This document shows, in pieces, positions 21,339 to 42,306 of a DNA stretch of 64,000 bases. The translations under genes and the position numbers were made by a program. Each line of letters starts with the position of its first letter. Positions within the stretch are counted from its first letter, which is position 1. Source of the stretch: Octopus sinensis. Taxonomy: Eukaryota. The stretch spans positions 124,001 through 188,000 of the forward strand of contig NW_021833018.1 of the NCBI RefSeq assembly GCF_006345805.1, written 5' to 3'. The notes below the pieces were generated by a model that was not told where the DNA came from, did not search any database, and worked only from the letters and a program-made list of their open reading frames with translations.

Positions 21339-21500
21339 TAACTTACTCACAATTTTTCTTACTAATTAATACATGATCGAGTCCTTAAATATTTAATTGA
21401 TTATTTCCGTTGTTTTAGTCTTTGGGTGTATCCTAGTTTTGATTTATCTGATCGGAAAATTTTTAATTATGCAGCAAATGATGTTTCTTGGCAACTTATA

Positions 21501-24500
21501 ATGTCGAGCTGGGGGAAAATATATAATTTTAAAACAAATCAATGCATCATAAGAAACACCGTAGCAGTTGGATGTTTCTTTGAAAATGCCCCTTCTTTGG
21601 CGTTTGGAAATACTTGTGGGAAGGTAGAACTCCATATAATTGATAGGTCGTGCTGTATAACTTGGGAGTAGGAAATTTGGAAAAGAATTTTGTGGAAGTC
21701 GATGTCCTTAACTTTAACAGACAAATATACGTATTATACGCATTTAGTCGGCCTGATTCGAATGACATTTTATTGGTGGGGACCTCTGATAGCATAATTG
21801 CATATGACTTAAAGTTGAATATTCAGTTATTCTCGAAAGAAGTATTATAATTTCATATCTTTTTAGGTTCTTGGGGGTTGTTGGAGTATTGGGAGTGGAA
21901 CCATTTCTGGGGATGTCGACAAGACAATTATATTATCTGGTCCTTCTACTTTGCAAGGATACAAAATGGACGGCACTTCTACTCTATGGACTGTGTTAGC
22001 TGGGAAAATCAGATCATTTTGTGTCCTCGATTTTGATTCGAACGGAAGAAACGAAATTATTGCTGGTTCAGAAGATATGGAAATTAAATTCTACGATAAG
22101 GAAGATATTGTTTGGGAGATATTTGAGGATGATGTAATCTAAACTTTAAAACCCTTAATCAGGTAGTAATTTCACTTTGCGTTTTAAACAAAACTTGCTT
22201 TGGTTATCTGCTTAAAAACGGGACATACGGAGTCTATGAGTCGACTAATAAAAAATGGTCGAGAAAGGTAGTGCTGTTCGATAATACGAGTTATGTTCAC
22301 TTTAGAATAAAATCAACCCCGTAAACATGGTTTCTTTGGATATTAACAGAAATGGACAGAAGGAAATGATTATTGGTTGGGAAGACGGAACTGTTTGTGC
22401 TTAATTTTTACATTTAGGTCTCCTTCGTCAATTCAGATATTGGTTCTGTCATTTATGAGGAAAAATTGACGGGATCAATTGCAGGGGTGGCAGAGGTAAT
22501 GTTATTCAGCTTTTTCTAGATTCTTTTTAACGGATGTGAAAACTTAAATCACCTCCTAGTCTGCACTGTTCACGGTGAAGGTATTTTTAGCCAACGATAA
22601 ATAATGTAGTAAGGACATATGGAAATTTGACTTTGAAATCTACTCAAATAAAAACTACAAAGTCGCCCAGCCAAGACAACATAAAAATTTCAACAAAAGT
22701 CGTTTCTGGACAGACAAATAGTAATTCTCAGCGTTACGAAGCAAAAGAATTGATAGAAGATGAATATTTGGAAAAGAAAACCATCGAAAATGAAAAGTTT
22801 GTCGCAACAAGTGCAAATAAATCGACTACAAAAGCATTCAATGATTTAGTTTCCCAGTTCGGGATCAGTTTGACTGATTTCTCAAAAAATTATTCAAAAG
22901 CGAACGACTTTTGGATTAACGAAGCCTTTAGAAATAACTGTAATGACGACATTATTCGTTTAATGTCAAAATTTGTCGAATTAGAGTTTTACTGGAATAC
23001 GGATGCCGATTTGACGAGTTTAATTGAAATTTTTAATGAACATTTACCATTTCTCAGAAATTTATTACAAAAATATAAACAAGAAAAAGCCATTGAATCA
23101 TCGAACACGATTTTTGAAAACATATCTAAATTAGTTGACGAATGCCAACTTTTTGTGGCAGAAAGTGAAACGATAAATAATTTTCAAAAAAAACTGACTT
23201 TATTGCAAGATATCAATAAACAGACAACTTGCATCAACATGAATCTCGATAAAATTTCAGAAGTCTGTGAGTCGTTGAGGACGGCCTTGTTTTCTGAAGT
23301 CATGAATATTTTCAACTTTTCCTCAGCAACTAAATCAATCAAGATGCCTAGTTATCTAATTGAGATCGAATATAGGTTGAGAGAAACATTGAATAGTTTT
23401 TACAAGTTCAGAAAAACCAAAAATATTAAAAAATTTATTTTGGAGGCCACTCAGTTCAACGAAAAATATGTTTCAAACTTTATTTATTATTTTACGTCTT
23501 GTTTCAAACAAATTCGGGAAAACAGCAAAAATATTATCACGATGATTGAGATGTCCCCAACTAACGAAATGGTTTTTGTTAGTGCATACCAAGAAATTAA
23601 TTTCATTTTGAATTGTTTATTTCTAGTCAGAAGATCTAACGTGAATTTTAACGTTAGCAAAGAGTATGAGACCTTAAACACAAATATATTCAACTTTGCC
23701 CAATTTATCCTTGAATCGGTTGAGAATAACCAAAAAATATCATTTGAATTAAAAACCATGTTGAATGTTGCACTTACGAATTTACAAACAGAGTTGAACA
23801 TTCATGCTGAAATTGATTTTTTTGGAGGCTACTTTTTAATTAAAAATTGCCTCTTTAAACTTGAAAAAGTCTCAAGATCTCTAATATTAAACGATAGTCG
23901 TGGTGATATGGAACAGCTTTCGAAACTGAAAGGTCCTACTGGCAAGGCTCTGAACAAATTACAAACTGCTTTTAATCTTTATGACATGCACATCCCAATA
24001 GACGAACTAAAAATATATTTTCGCCTTGTTGGGCAGACAGCATTGAAAATTTGGAAAATTTTAAAAAAACACCCAAACATATTTCAATCAGATTTGATCG
24101 AGTTAGCAAAGGACAGCATTCGAGACATTGAAAGTTGGGAAGCCAATATAAATGAAACATCGAACATTATTGAATACCAGAGGCAGCAGGAACGAAAGCG
24201 ACTAGAAGTTTTAAATGCAAAAAAACAGGTTCAAACTGCTTTTGGTTATTACAGAACTTGAAGATAGCAGTGACTCGTATCAAAGACGATGTTTCCAAGA
24301 GGCCAAATTCAGGTCTACTGGTGATTTGGTACTCAATATTTATAATAGACTGACTTTACCGTAAAATGCGAGATTCTCAGATCACCGGAGATCGAAGTAA
24401 ATTATTAAAACTTTAATTATAGGAAAGTATGAGTATTAGAGTGAGGACTAGTTCAAGTTAAATAAACTGTTGTCATTTTAAAGATGCTTTTGTTTGGGGA

Positions 24501-25580
24501 ATGATTGGTTGTGCAATCGGGGTTTTTCAGCAAGACTCGGCGATAGTTGCGTTTTTACGTTTTTTATTGTTCTTAGTTTATTGAAAGAAGAAAATGTCTC
24601 AAATGAAGTTTATTTTAATTTCGTGACAGAAAAAGATGTGGAGAGCAAACTAATGCTGGACATTTTTATCGGAGCCCAGAACAGGTTAGATCAAGCTTTT
24701 TATCTTCAAGTGACATATACGCACTTAAAAATATCGAATTGAACCTTAGAAAGTTCATTATGTACGAAGTACTGACGACCATTCCTCCTGAACCTGAAGG
24801 AACAGTAAAATTCAAAATTAAAGAACGAATAAACAGGATTATGCTTTGGATTGATGAAAATTTCGAATATTCATCCCTGAATAGAGAATCCGTGTTTTTT
24901 TGTTTCTACTCATTAAGACACAAAAATTTATTAACGATTAAGGCTAGTGAACAAGGGGAGGTACTCGAGTAGTTTAAAACTTTAAAACTGCAGATTGTTT
25001 TAAAAACTGATAATATCGGATTGGCGGCAACAGTGGTTCAATCGCTGACAAAATTCCTAAAGATTTCTGAATTAAAATCAACATGCCACTTCCCTAAAGA
25101 AGTCGATGCAATTCGTTTGAATTTTGAAACAGTAATGCCTTTATGAGAATCTTTTTAGATTGTCGGCAGTACACAAACTAATCGAAATCTTGGAACTGAA
25201 TTGTCTGAAATAAGCAGCATTGTCAAGGGTTTAACATTGCTGGTCGACCATTACAGAAGTATTGACAACATGTTTGTCATAATAAATGATAAAACTTATT
25301 ACAGGGAACTGATGCGAAATACTTTACAAGAACTGCGAATTAGCAATGAGCAAGTCTTTAGAATGCAAAAAATAAAATATGAGAATCGAACTGCTTTAAT
25401 GGAATCATTAAAAAAATTGAACGAATCAATATTTCAGTGTTCCAATCTTAGAGGTAATCGGATAAAATTGGAAATAATGTAGTGGGTGTATATAAATCAC
25501 AAGTTGTTCAAATTTGCCGAGAAGGAATTAAAAAGATGAGTTTTGATACTATTCTAAGAGGGATAACTTACGGAGAGTAA
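21501..25580 (+). CDS. BBS2: Bardet-Biedl syndrome 2 protein with a large internal insertion; many short introns
   Basis: VAVGCF..PSLAFGNTCGK, LLVGTSDSIIAYD, DFDSNGRNEIIAGSEDMEI, FGYLLKNGTYGVY, MIIGWEDG, HGE^VRTY, KKQ^NL, FKIKERINRIMLWIDENF, LKKLNESIFQCSNLR^VGVYKSQVVQICRE. Confidence 0.9.
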
Positions 25581-25719
25581 TTTGAATTGATTTTTTTGAC
25601 ATTAAATCAAGCTAAATAAAATATTTAGCTATGAGTCATAATTATTAAATCAAAATAAGTTATTTTTAGTTTGTGTTTTCGTGATTTAATGTATTTTGTT
25701 ACATCAACCTTCTCCTCTT

Positions 25720-27671: not shown

Positions 27672-30424
27672 CAGTCAACCCTCTCTATAGTGAACCCTCT
27701 CTATAGTGAACAGGCCATATTAATGCAATCTACAATAACAAATATTAGTAATTCTCATTAATATATTTATTATAAAATGAATACCACGTTTAAAAATGTA
27801 TAATATCATTTATTTAAATATTTTTGTGTTCACTATTAAAGAATAGTGAACGTCAAATTTGTGTGAACATAAAAATATTAAATTTAATATTTTTACATAT
27901 ATATTTAAAATTCTTTAAAATGAATATACTACACGTTCTACAGTTGTTAGCATGGTGGAAAATTGAAAACGCCTGTCATTTTTTCAAAAGAAGGAAATAA
28001 TCGAATTTTATCATAAAAATAGACATTACACACAGCGCGATTTATCCCTTTATTTCAATGTTTCTCCGGGCTGCATAAACAAAATTTTGAAAAATTCTGA
28101 AGGAATACTTAATGTTCAAGATGACCAAAAAAAGAAGAAAATTTACTTGCCCAAGTCTCAACCATTCGACAGAGATCTATTTGAATGGTTCGTTAAAAAA
28201 CGATCATTTGGATTTACAATCAATGAATATCTTTTGAAGTCCATGTCTCTAAAAATGGCGAAAGTTTGTAATATTCAAGGATTTCAAGCATCAAATGGAT
28301 GGCTTGAGAAATTTAAAAATCGATATTGCATTGCTTCCCGTGCTTTATGTGGGGAAAATCAATTTGTTGAAACCTCTGTGATTGAAAATTTTACAGAAAG
28401 CCTCAATAGAAAATTAGAACAATATTGTTCAAAAAATATTTTTAATTTGGACGAAACTGGATTGTTTTTTAAACTTTTGTCGAACAGAACATTAGCTGTT
28501 GACTCGGACAAAAATCTGTCTAATAAACCGATAAAAGAAAGAGTAACTGTTATGTTTTGCGTTAGTATGATGGGAGAAAAACTTGACCCATTTGTTATTG
28601 GAAAAGCCAAAAATCCACGCTGCTTTAAAGGAAGAAGAAATTTAATTAATAATTTACAAGTGGAATACAAATCAAATAAAAAAGCATGGAAGACATATGG
28701 TTATTTCTCAGAATGGCTCATAGAATTGAACAAAAAAATAATTTTGCAAAAAAGAAAAATTCTAATTCTACTTGATAATGCGACTGTACACTCACGTGAT
28801 TTAGAGTTCAGTAACATCGAACTCTTTTTTTCCCTCCAAATACAACATCGAAGTTACAACCCCTTGATCAAGGTATGTCACGAGCCTAGGTTGTTACCGA
28901 GCCTAGGTCGTGACATTTCGCTTATTTTTCTATAAAGATTAAAAATTAATTTATCCCTAATCCTAATAAAATTATTCTTAATATTTAAAATTAATCTATT
29001 AAATATTGAAACAAAAATATCCGGATAACCATACATCTGTAATTGTAATATATATATAAAGGCGTGTTTTTCTGTGTTACTTATGTCGCGTTCTTTTGTA
29101 AGAGATATGGATGGGTATCGATTGCGTGTTCATGGGTGTTCATCAGTCAAACATTCATTTAAAATTGGAGATAAGGTAAACTCAAATTATTCTAAATTGT
29201 AGATAAGGATTCAAAAGGACTATGGTACCAATCCTTCACTTGCACTCAAGAAATTCGAAAGTCCATACGGAGAAGTTTGTACAATAAGTGAAATCCTCCC
29301 GCATAATATGGTCAGAGTTGAAATGGACGATGGAACTACTAAGAAGACGCTTATGAAAAGAATTAAAAAATTTAAATAACATAATTTGTCTTGATTGTTT
29401 TGTTAATAAAAAAATTTAAATCCTAATTAGCAGAGAAACATTTATAGCCGAACATTCAAATAGACAAAATTTTCGAATAAAATAACATTTTCTGCGTATT
29501 TTTTTTATTTGAAGCATTTTGAATTTTTCTTATTTGAACAAAATAGCAATTCATAAATTAAAATATTATTTTTAGTTAGGAAATCGATTTTAAAGCACAG
29601 ACTAGTTGGCATTAATTTTAAATTTTATCATCGAAAATATTGGCATCCAATTCCATTTTAAGTATTTGTCATTGAAATTGAATTCAAATATTTTTTTGAA
29701 TTTTTTTCTAAGTCCATAAGTGTAACGACCTAGGCTCGGTAACATCCTAGGCTCGTGACATAATAAAATCATTCAAAGACAGGTATAGACAACTCCGATG
29801 TGCACACTTGATTGAATTTTATACTAATGATGACAATGTAGATCACGAAAAAGTTACGGAAAAGTTGAAGAAATTCACTCTATTGAATTGCTTGATATTC
29901 ATAAATCAAGCTTGGTTAGAAGTGTCGGAATTAACAATTACAAATTGTTTCAAGAAAGCATTTGAAAATGCGTTAATACAGAACCTGACAGAAATAGAAG
30001 AAATAGATGATGAAAATTTTTTGATTCATGAAAATGATCAAATTGACGACGAAAACTTTATACAGAACTTTGCGAGAAAATTAACACAGCAAAACCAAGT
30101 TGAAGAAGAAGATGAAATAATTTATGTTCTGACACTATATGAAGCTAGTGAATATGCAAAGGCGCTTGAATTATGGTTTATTGAGAATGATTATGAACAA
30201 AGAGGAAAAGTATACAAAATAAAAAAAATTAAGAAATTATCAAACTAATCATTCTCAAAAATCACCGATTGCATGATTAAGATTTCTAAATAATCTTTGT
30301 AATTATAATTTAATATTGTTCATTGTTATTTTGAGTTCTTGTTCTATTTGTTTGTTCGCTATAGACAATAGTGAACATGGTGTTTTGACGTAAACATTTT
30401 GTTAACTATAGAGAGGGTTGACTG
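27672..30424 (+). mobile_element. Tigger/pogo (Tc1/mariner) transposon, interrupted
   Basis: TIR CAGTCAACCCTCTCTATAGT with TA at both ends; ASNGWLEKFKNRY, NLDETGLF, LLDNATVH, QPLDQG^IIKSFK. Confidence 0.93.
28876..29760 (+). mobile_element. Non-autonomous Ginger-like element (TGT..ACA, ~40-bp TIR) nested in the Tigger
   Basis: TIR TGTCACGAGCCTAGG.. / ..CCTAGGCTCGTGACA; interior 29130-29580 matches the reverse complement of 55680-56130. Confidence 0.85.
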
Positions 30425-30722: not shown

Positions 30723-33700
30723 TTGTTTAGTGGTGTAAGGATGGTTGGTTTTTCTCAGTCTGGAAAAGTCATTTCCATGGACGCATCCACAGAATACCAA
30801 GTAAATGACGCTCAAGAAAATGTGGATTTGTCTGTTCATGGCTGTCTTAATGCCCCTGTCAAATACAATGAAACTCAGCAGCTCTCGTCAACTTTGTTAT
30901 CCTTAAAAGCTATTTGTGAGTCTATTGATTCGTCCAACCCAGGAGAGTGGATGTCATCTCTTTTGAACTATGTCAAAGATCGTCTCAAGCGAGTACCTAG
31001 GGGGGGGTGGCCACTTATGGCCAGCTATTTTAATTTAAATTTGGTAAGAAAAAATCGATATTCGAATTGAAAAAACTTGCTACTACTTTCCGCGGAAATA
31101 ATGAAATCACCAAAACTGGACATAATATGAATAGAAAATTACCTGATTTGACACTGTACAACAAAATTTTTGAAGAATATTAATTCAAATTGATCAAAAT
31201 AAATCAATACCAATCGAAGAAAGGAAGCAAACAAGAAAGATTCAATCTCAGCATGTAAATCATGAAGTGATTGAAATGATTAATAAAGCCCTAATTGAAT
31301 ACACGTCGAATAACATTCCTGCAAGTATTGAGGATATTTCGTCTTTGATATACTCAGCACAATGTGTATATCAACAGATATCAAGTAAATTGACATTCAA
31401 GTCGAATTGGAAACAAAAAATCCAAAATAAAATTGAATCTTTGATGGAGAATGATCGGTTAATATCAAAGCATTTTATGTCCACCACTAAAGATGAGGAA
31501 CGGAAGAAAGCAGTAGACATTCTCTGCTCCTACAATTATAAGAAGTCTAAAAGGGGGGAGTTTGAGAGAATATCGTCTACAATAAATGATCAAATCAAAA
31601 TAAACAAAAAGTTATCAGTTTCAGATTCAAGAAGGCAATATGGAATAGATAATAGAAACTTCGAGTTGAACAGAAGATCGTTCTACAGAAAGCTGAATCC
31701 CAATTCTGATAACAAACAAATTGCTGGTTTTGACTCGTCTGAGTGTCTCAAGTTTTGGGGTGATGTTTGGAAGAAAAGGATAAAACTGATTTGGGCCTTG
31801 GAGTGAACAAAAGAGTAACTGGAGTGGAAGATAATGCACCTGACGTTAGCGACGAGTTTATATCAAACTTAATTGAGTACCTTCCTAATTGGAAGGCTCC
31901 GGGATGTGATGCTGTGTACAATTTCTTTATCAAAAAGCTGGACTCTCTTCACAAATTTCTTTTCCAAGAGATCAGAAATATTATTAATGGTGTCAGTCAA
32001 CCACAAGGATGGTTTTACACTGGAATTACATTTTTAATCCCAAAGAAAGCAAACTCTGTTGATCCGAAGGACCTTAGACCAATTACATGCATGCCGTGCT
32101 TATATAAATTGGTCACAAAATGTGTGAACGAAAAAATCGCTGTATATGCTGATACTTACGATCTGATAACGGAGTTCCAGTTGGGATCTAAACGCCATTG
32201 CCAAGGAGCAAAGGAATTAGCGCTTCTAAATAGACGCGTTAATGAAGTTTATGGAAACAAATTATTATGTGCATGGATCGACGTAAAGAAAGCTTTTGAC
32301 TCAGTGAGTCACGAATTTCTTTTTGAAGTTTTGGAAAACTCAGGACTACCTAAATGGATAACGAAATTTATGATGTCAATAATTCCTAACTGGAGAGTGT
32401 CGTTAAGATTAGGAAAAGAGCTGCTTGGAACAGTTAATATTGATCGTGGTATACTCCAAGGTGACTCACTGTCACCACAGTTATTTGTATTGGTCTTGGA
32501 TCCATTAAGCAGGATTTTATCTTTAAAATATCCGAGTATGTCAATCAATACTGGTGAAGACAAGTCCTTAACCTTTTCTACCAATCATTTTCTATTCATC
32601 GATGATTTGAAGCTTTTTGCTCAGAAGGAAGAGACACTGGCACGCATGATGGAGGATGTGAACATTTACTTTAAACTGGCTGGTTTGGAGAAGAATTTTG
32701 AGAAATCAGCGACAAATTGTTATTTGTTGAGGAATGAAGCTACATTAATGGATGGACTACAATCAAATGAACAGCTCAAAGATTGTCACAGACGGACCAA
32801 ACTCGCTGAGTTCTACGAATATCTCAAGGATGATGAGTTTCCGAGACTAAAGAATTTTGCGATAAAGATGATTTCTATATTTGGCACAACTTACCAATGT
32901 GAGCAAACGTTTTCGAGGATGAAATATGTTAAGTCTGCCCATCGTGCAAGATTGACTGACGGACACTTAAAATCAATTCTCATGATAGGATGCAGCAATT
33001 TAAAACCAAATATTGATGAACTTATCAAAAAAAGATCACAGTTCCATAGCTCTCATTAAAATTTTTGTTTACTTTATTTTTGTTTAAATTAGTTTTTATT
33101 GTAAAAAACACACTTATGAATTTCTAGTAAAATTATAATCCTATGCACGTGCTCCGGCCCGCGTTCATTGTGTTGGGGTCAATCCGGCCCGCGAGTGCAA
33201 AAAGTTTGGTGACCCCTGGACTAGATAGCTATCGCTATCTGGGGGTGCTAGAAGACAGATGCAGTAATGTTCTTAAAGAGGATGTACTCAAAAATATTAA
33301 AGAAGAAATGCAAAAGCGTATTGGAAGACTATCGGAAACTAAACTAAATGCAGTCAATCTATTTAGAGCAATTAATGAGCATGCTCTATCGCTGATTAAC
33401 TATTATATCGGTCTACTCGATCTGGAACCATCTTGTTTCGAAGAAATGGACAAGTTTGTCAGAAAGCTGTTGGCTGATTTGAAAATTCACATGAAGCCAG
33501 CCTGTAAAGAAAGACTGTATCTGCCAAGAGATACACTTGGAAGGGGACTTGTATCAGTTGCCTTTAAGGCGGAAAAAATGCTGTTGGACTTCAAAACCAA
33601 TTTGGAAAGGCGAAAGTTAATCTCCTTGAGAAAAGCAGCAATTTTGTGGGCCGAACAGAAAAGGAAAACCCATATGGCCACAATCACAGAATTCCTGCAT

Positions 33701-41840: not shown

Positions 41841-42047
41841 TGAGGGTATCCCAAAACTGGGTCTGGCTTTAGGCGAGGTCGGACTTTATTGATAATGAAA
41901 ACTAATCAATTTTATAGACCTCCAGCTCAAAGTTACACTTTTCTTGTAGAAAATAATATTCGGTTTGATTTTTTAATTACTATTAAATAACTTTGTATCT
42001 GTAAGAGCTAATAAAAATAATAAACGATTGTATCCTTAGCAGCACGC

Positions 42048-42306
42048 ATGGAGAATATCGACGAGTTTCCAATATTAGTAATATTTTACAATTAAAATTT
42101 AGTTGAGTCAGGCATTGAACTCAGTCCAAGAAACCTTCGACAAAATGGCAAATTCAGTCTTGGCAAGAAATATCCTTTAATTATATTATCATATATTAAA
42201 TTTATTCCTTAACTATTTACTTGACGGATATAGCAGAAAAATTGAAGACCTCGAACGGGATATAAGTGGCTTGGTCGCTCAAGCAGGGACGGATTACAGG
42301 AGATAA
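42048..42306 (+). CDS. HSBP1: Heat shock factor binding protein 1 (60 aa, 3 coding exons)
   Basis: MENIDEFPIL^LSQALNSVQETFDKMANSVLAR^IDGYSRKIEDLERDISGLVAQAG; introns 42078-42102 (GT-AG) and 42170-42220 (AT-AC). Confidence 0.88.
42170..42220 (+). other. U12-type (minor spliceosome) AT-AC intron, 51 nt
   Basis: 5' ATATCCTTT, branch box TTCCTTAAC (42205-42213), 3' TAC; removal restores the HSBP1 frame. Confidence 0.9.

Follow-up and report, generated by a model that had tools for sequence, protein, structure and literature searches.

We describe a 51-nt intron of HSBP1. In our preferred reading, which as a whole has a probability of about 80%, it is an ancestral U12-type AT-AC intron in an animal with tiny introns, the animal is likely a dicyemid, and its own minor spliceosome likely excises the intron and likely refuses introns much shorter than 50 nt. 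The gene lies within 64,000 nucleotides of the Octopus sinensis assembly that we analyzed (the window). We refer to the octopus as the host and to the organism whose DNA the window represents as the cobiont. The features of the gene are as follows.

42048..42077, + strand: HSBP1 coding exon 1, 10 codons from a putative start ATG; the frame is open once spliced
42078..42102, + strand: major-type GT-AG intron, 25 nt; its acceptor leaves a next exon of 67 nt, as in the host gene
42103..42169, + strand: HSBP1 exon 2, 67 nt (22 codons plus 1 base), equal in length to host exon 2
42170..42220, + strand: U12-type AT-AC intron, 51 nt, phase 1; orthologue of the host's 6,396-nt AT-AC intron
42170..42178, + strand: U12 donor ATATCCTTT, predicted to pair with the 5' end of the cobiont U11 and with the AAGGAGAG box of U6atac
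42179..42204, + strand: spacer from donor to branch box, 96% A+T, no other signals seen
42205..42213, + strand: U12 branch box TTCCTTAAC, predicted to pair with the cobiont U12
42219..42220, + strand: AC acceptor, read from the sequence
42221..42306, + strand: HSBP1 exon 3 through the stop codon, matching Pfam PF06825 at positions 33-51 (E 0.0042)

First, the signals and the reading frame identify the intron. As the sequence-only reading had reported, 42170-42220 has a U12 donor (consensus RTATCCTT) and, close to its acceptor, a U12 branch box (consensus TTCCTTRAC), with 7 nt separating the box from the intron's end. The predicted branch A is at 42212, which is position 43 of the intron. The computed duplex energies are -6.5 kcal/mol for the donor with the cobiont's U11, -6.4 kcal/mol for the donor with its U6atac, and -8.2 kcal/mol for the branch box with its U12. 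The combination of donor, branch box, and acceptor did not arise in any of 300 second-order Markov simulations of the window. Removing both introns from the three-exon gene (42048-42306) gives an open frame of 60 codons (...SVLAR-I-DGYSRKIEDLE...), and the frame requires removal of the 51-nt intron: if it is retained, translation reads RNIL-stop, that is, it stops after 3 codons. The claim that excision joins AR to the rest of HSBP1 agrees with this frame and with the Pfam match of exon 3, which is weak for this 27-amino-acid piece and falls below the cut-off; however, the intron lies in phase 1 inside the Ile codon, so the junction is not exactly R|I. When exon 2 was searched alone against Pfam, there was no match. 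We consider it nearly certain, from these signals, that this is a real U12-type intron, and its identity as a minor intron is supported by an orthologous AT-AC intron in the host and by predicted complementarity to the organism's own U11, U6atac, and U12. Directly upstream of the HSBP1 start, a 39-nt GT...AG stretch (42001-42039 of the window, ending in GTATCCTTAG) is a possible 5'-UTR intron.

Second, the window comes from a different organism than the octopus. The assembly (G000) has 13,516 contigs totalling 2.72 Gb; an unplaced contig of 256 kb contains the window. The large host chromosomes carry their own LEO1, HSBP1, CFA20, 25K, and PLC-gamma, all with long introns, which implies that the window belongs to a second organism; the LEO1 proteins of host and window are only 47-59% identical. 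We assigned contigs by a tetranucleotide score (the host and cobiont ranges touch at their edges), by shared repeats, and by genes with tiny introns. The three contigs with candidate cobiont snRNAs (C1794, C6303, and C8703) have window-like tetranucleotide scores, and their repeats are common to cobiont DNA, with none common to 501 kb of host-like DNA. One of them, C6303, has 3.5 kb in common with the window at over 99% identity. If the window and the second set of snRNAs were instead host DNA, such as retrocopies or odd paralogs, then they would say nothing about a tiny-intron organism. All of this DNA does come from one assembly, U6atac occurs dozens of times in the host (43 matches), and the score ranges touch; but the host's separate long-intron genes on chromosome-size contigs, the low LEO1 identity, and the lack of any repeat common to the tested cobiont loci and the host-like loci largely refute this idea, and we find it barely credible.

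A nuclear-receptor zinc finger marks the cobiont as an animal, and all 12 of the LEO1 homologs that were named, among 22 matches, are from animals. It also has ciliary genes (BBS2 and CFA20), a GC content of 37%, and many LINEs. Dicyema japonicum is reported to have 36.7% GC and 49% repeats and to be rich in LINEs (PMC6736024), and the 10%, 50%, and 90% quantiles of its intron lengths are 22, 24, and 32 nt (supplement of PMC13644364); the cobiont's intron quantiles, GC content, and LINE abundance agree with these values. According to the accessible text of PMC13644364, only myxobolid myxozoans and D. japonicum among animals have introns this short, and Myxozoa are listed as having lost the minor splicing system (PMC10639083). 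Given the animal and ciliary genes, the GC content, the LINEs, the intron sizes, and the loss of minor splicing in myxozoans, we think that the cobiont is likely, if unproven, a dicyemid. A search of the assembly with universal 18S primers found 18 matches, all 18 of host type, and no cobiont 18S; no named dicyemid appeared among the homologs listed.

Two other features of the window concern its gene content. BBS2 (21400-25600) seems to be interrupted by an open frame of 556 codons (22591-24261) without tiny introns, which could be an insertion or a nested gene; a homolog search for BBS2 found nothing. At 32840-33230 and 28800-29760 there are nested transposons, with hAT-like and other DNA-transposon pieces inside a LINE and a transposase gene.

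Third, the intron is conserved in position. In the host's HSBP1, an AT-AC intron of 6,396 nt comes after the 67-nt exon; it carries a U12 donor and branch box and shares its codon and phase (1) with the cobiont's intron. Comparison with HSBP1 orthologues, which had been proposed as a check, thus came out in favor of a minor intron. Judging from this shared codon and phase, the cobiont's intron is an ancestral U12 intron that has shrunk about 125-fold. A literature search on U12-type introns in HSBP1 returned nothing relevant.

The assembly also contains a second compact HSBP1 (G000:C8338:51298-51452, locus L028, and four other contigs; the coding sequence is identical on all five). At the site and phase of the 51-nt U12 intron, its intron is GT-AG, 23 nt long, and devoid of U12 signals. 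Because LEO1 and CFA20 are each present as one cobiont type, the second HSBP1 is probably a paralog in which the intron was converted from the U12 to the U2 class, although we infer the direction of this change. The region with the second HSBP1 also holds CFA20, and near-identical copies of it are found on at least five contigs. The idea of two cobiont species is unsupported, because there is one cobiont LEO1 copy and the CFA20 copies are of one type; a partly assembled second species is conceivable.

The paralog raises the question of whether it does the work, the HSBP1 in the window being a dying duplicate in which splicing of the intron has ceased. The paralog has the higher Pfam score and is on five contigs, and the window's copy was absent among the 12 HSBP1 matches in the genome search. 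On the other hand, the window's copy has an unbroken frame of 60 amino acids, an exon 2 of the same length as the host's, and full splice signals, and the same kind of intron occurs in three other genes. A dying duplicate is therefore very improbable.

Fourth, the cobiont seems to have its own minor spliceosome. Rfam searches of the assembly gave 43 matches for U6atac, 4 for U12, 5 for U11, and 2 for U4atac, and since host and cobiont were assembled together, most of these are the host's. The top matches lie on chromosome-size contigs and belong to the host, and we rejected them as the organism's own. (U6atac-like copies number at least 39 in the host, versus 1-4 of each other minor snRNA.) Cobiont-like genes that pass the Rfam gathering threshold were found for U11 (C1794, 63 bits), U12 (C6303, 56 bits), and U6atac (C8703, 52 bits). 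Their sequences differ from the host set, and they retain the segments that are predicted to pair with the donor and branch box of the HSBP1 intron. Sm-type sites are kept in the cobiont's U11 and U12, and the U-run end is kept in U6atac.

Some parts of these snRNAs are altered. The cobiont U6atac (L013:4987-5073 on C8703) is just 87 nt, with a U-run end, and is missing the 3' stem-loop that the Rfam consensus has. A second copy (L015:4937-5048 on C12470, also a cobiont-like contig) has the same 5' half and also passes the gathering threshold, but is likely dead or chimeric. Where an AGC triad is expected, as in the consensus and in the host, both cobiont copies read GGC. (A literature search on the U6atac triad found nothing relevant.) The cobiont U12 begins with GUGCCC rather than AUGCCU and could pair with the GGC of U6atac; the computed energies are -11.4 for the cobiont U6atac/U12 pair and -11.0 for host U6atac with cobiont U12, a difference that does not single out the cobiont pair. 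The CUACUUU hairpin loop, which we take to be the RNPC3 site, is kept in the cobiont U12 as in the Rfam consensus.

Among the proteins, U11/U12-25K (SNRNP25, PF18036) is encoded on cobiont-like contig C8594, where two exons match above the Pfam cut-off (E 0.02 and 0.15); the frame is intact, and introns of 24-25 nt lie at the positions of host introns. No cobiont U4atac was found. The Rfam search for it scored the best 51 of about 95,000 candidates, yielded two host matches, and is insensitive to a divergent copy; two patterns derived from pairing (32 and 44 matches) gave no credible cobiont match. Five of the pattern matches on unplaced contigs were inspected: four had no U4atac score when rescanned with Rfam, and the fifth was host-like. 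For CENATAC, all seven matches in the genome were the host's, and neither CENATAC nor 48K was found in the cobiont by exon-by-exon searches, which are weak for short divergent exons. Zinc-finger matches to 48K on cobiont contigs are from a double-finger protein, not 48K. One cobiont protein (L121, G000:C12463:352530-352739), small and with a pair of CHHC zinc fingers, is presumably GTSF1-like; the genome is rich in transposons.

The prediction that the organism keeps U11, U12, U4atac, and U6atac thus held for the U11, U12, and U6atac genes but not for U4atac; the search with Infernal that went with it gave the same result once the matches, which unfiltered are mostly the host's, had been sorted. 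We think it highly probable, from these genes, that the cobiont has its own working minor spliceosome. Alternatively, the minor spliceosome might be decaying, so that the major or a hybrid machinery cuts the HSBP1 intron as a non-canonical AT-AC intron. The short U6atac with its altered triad fits with decay, as does the failure to find U4atac, 48K, or CENATAC in the cobiont, although the searches behind these missing components favor host-like sequences. Also, the full U12 donor and branch consensus is kept in four genes, and the intron-pairing segments of U11, U12, and U6atac, the Sm-type sites, the U-run end, and the frame of 25K are all kept. Because the cobiont's major donors are degenerate (GT), a major-spliceosome route would not preserve the U12 motifs. 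Overall, decay is improbable.

Fifth, the cobiont's minor introns are about twice as long as its major introns. We searched for minor introns with eight genome-wide consensus patterns, covering lengths of about 23-95 nt; degenerate introns would be missed. The patterns had 36, 15, 14, 30, 115, 43, 67, and 33 matches, and 100 of the 115 were listed. Among the matches listed, at least four are minor-type introns within genes on cobiont contigs:

HSBP1: 51 nt, AT-AC, phase 1
PLC-gamma (L064:4959-5010, - strand): 52 nt, AT-AG, phase 2
GGPS1: 55 nt, AT-AC, phase 1, with gapless placement against homologs
MyTH4-RhoGAP gene: 57 nt if AT-AC or 54 nt if AT-AG, both in frame; the MyTH4 match is weak (E 0.12)

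In the host's PLC-gamma, a 1,599-nt AT-AC intron lies at the codon and phase (2) of the cobiont's 52-nt AT-AG intron. For the latter, the frame is kept only with the AG acceptor: an AC two bases further on shifts the frame, and the host orthologue ends in AC. In the host, a U12-like branch box and AC also lie ahead of a PLC-family exon (G000:C2:58598162, L182), in a comparable part of the Y domain. A 50-amino-acid exon query did not find GGPS1 in the host.

In all four cobiont introns, the distance from the donor to the branch A is 43-48 nt and the distance from the branch A to the intron's end is only 8-12 nt. Their spacers of 26-31 nt are without signals and 80-96% A+T, and their lengths fall within 7 nt of each other.

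For comparison, we collected 37 major introns of the cobiont, 32 from a length-neutral spliced aligner and 5 by eye. They range from 22 to 33 nt with a median of 25 nt, which bears out the description of this genome as one of ~25-nt introns. Intron calls made without homologs were ambiguous and were left out of the results. Five aligner calls of 61-86 nt were also excluded from the major set: for four of them, short introns that preserve the frame offer an alternative, and one (72 nt) cannot be split into short introns. The lengths of minor and major introns are completely separated, with a ratio of 2.1 (exact p = 1e-5, or p = 0.006 if the five calls of 61-86 nt are included).

We found no cobiont minor-type candidates of 23-36 nt in 30 matches (both of the matches on unplaced contigs were host-like) and none of 62-95 nt in 14 matches. 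U12-like matches of 24 and 25 nt lie in host-like non-coding DNA, and on cobiont contig C13496 a match of 49 nt, which had no convincing frame, was dropped by eye as non-genic. Minor introns of the GT-AG type were not found on cobiont DNA in 15 plus 43 pattern matches, and the seven unplaced contigs that were inspected were host-like; C10308, which has the same repeat as C8663, was left out of that inspection. The other unplaced pattern matches that we inspected were host-like as well, with a few matches of known host repeats left out. An initial U12 pattern with 292 matches was discarded, as a host repeat dominates the first 100 of the 292. In this host repeat (for example, C1:9790324-9790354), a string of 31 nt mimics a complete AT-AC U12 intron and would mislead scans for these motifs.

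How might the difference in length arise? We propose that deletion pressure across the genome would shrink each intron until its own spliceosome no longer accepts it. The major spliceosome would have been remodelled for introns of ~25 nt. U11/U12 binds both ends of the intron as one particle; the minor spliceosome, serving just a handful of introns and holding the donor and branch box together at once, would still need about 43-48 nt from the donor to the branch A. The signals alone need about 24-28 nt, and each of the four minor introns has a further spacer of 26-31 nt; this signal-free, A+T-rich spacer would be kept because of that need. Only a class switch would take an intron position below the limit, as may have happened with the 23-nt GT-AG intron in the HSBP1 paralog. 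We lean toward a mechanical or efficiency limit as what sets the length of the minor introns, a limit inferred from four cases.

Instead, the minor introns could be real while their length reflects no limit of the spliceosome: with ~24-28 nt of obligatory signal, they would tolerate fewer deletions and lag behind, or there could be a soft optimum. There are just four introns, and several lineages that have few minor introns also have minor introns longer than their major ones, for which there is no consensus on the cause (PMC10639083). In plant mini-genes, the efficiency of U12 splicing increases with length (PMC5932401), and in Blastocystis the median minor intron is down to 39 nt. However, a lag would be expected to scatter the lengths, and all four introns hold a spacer of 26-31 nt and cluster within 7 nt of each other even though the host orthologs are 1.6 and 6.4 kb. 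A soft optimum or slower shrinkage is the less likely explanation but a serious rival. The claim of a floor at about twice the size of major introns stands as a ratio of 2.1 on four introns, with a spliceosomal limit as the more probable cause; as a universal rule it fails, since the Blastocystis median rules out a minor-intron floor of 50 nt in all organisms.

More tentatively, and with the odds somewhat against the picture as a whole, two dicyemid spliceosomes with unequal minimum sizes may share one nucleus. The major one would handle introns of ~25 nt. A stripped-down minor one (an 87-nt U6atac without the 3' stem-loop, a GGC triad, and a matching U12 5' end) would serve perhaps a dozen or two introns, all kept from shrinking further by a steric minimum of ~43 nt between donor and branch. 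Escape would be only by class conversion, caught in the act between the HSBP1 paralogs.

The factor that limits minimum intron length is still debated, and a 2026 study of the shortest animal introns closes by asking how such introns are recognized (PMC13644364). A genome with every intron at its lower limit is a natural measurement for both spliceosomes side by side, and here there is an internal control: one intron position that is 51 nt and U12 type in one paralog and 23 nt and U2 type in the other. The cobiont would also add a phylum that is missing from the pan-eukaryotic survey of minor introns (PMC10639083), and it contrasts with the myxozoans, in which the introns shrank and the minor system disappeared. 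Its altered U6atac would test which parts of the snRNA are dispensable.

We found no report of minor splicing in dicyemids among the papers listed by our literature searches; subscription papers, such as Ogino et al. 2010, lie outside that search. The term U12 had no matches in PMC6543705 or in the supplement of PMC13644364, nor did "spliceosom" in PMC6736024; in its accessible text, PMC13644364 discusses only U2-type splicing. Dicyema had no matches in the text and supplement of PMC10639083 or in the main text of PMC11347168. The accessible text of PMC2483917, the only one of the listed papers to mention U12, mentions the minor spliceosome and Dicyema without linking them.

Taken by itself, the intron is an ordinary ancestral U12 intron; what is unusual is its setting. 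It resembles known U12-type AT-AC introns in its ATATCCTT donor, its TTCCTTAAC branch box, its short distance from branch to acceptor, its phase (1), and its position, which is kept in another animal. It differs in its length: 51 nt versus 6,396 nt in the host ortholog, and shorter than the low end of 68 nt that is cited for U12 introns of Arabidopsis (PMC5932401). The probable class conversion resembles the U12-to-U2 conversion described in PMC7367187, in that the U12 intron of one gene has, at the orthologous site of another, a GT-AG counterpart that lacks U12 signals, but here the two genes are paralogs of seemingly one genome and the converted intron is down to 23 nt. The major introns are like the miniature introns of dicyemids (PMC6736024, PMC6543705, PMC13644364), with medians of 24-27 nt and degenerate GT donors in a LINE-rich genome of ~37% GC.

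Blastocystis is a partial precedent. It has 253-346 minor introns with a median of 39 nt (introns under 30 nt were excluded) and all four snRNAs (PMC10639083; PMC5608401); in Blastocystis ST1, over half of the major introns are 30 nt, and the minor introns are mostly AT-AC (PMC5608401; PMC10639083). Like the cobiont, Blastocystis ST1 is a parasite with ultra-short major introns that has kept the minor spliceosome, and its minor introns are longer than its major ones. The ratio of minor to major length is ~1.3 in Blastocystis versus ~2.1 in the cobiont, which is an animal, in which just four minor introns (51-57 nt) and no U4atac were found. On the sequences analyzed here, a likely dicyemid is likely to maintain a minor spliceosome, divergent in sequence, that serves very few introns, each of them roughly twice as long as its major introns.
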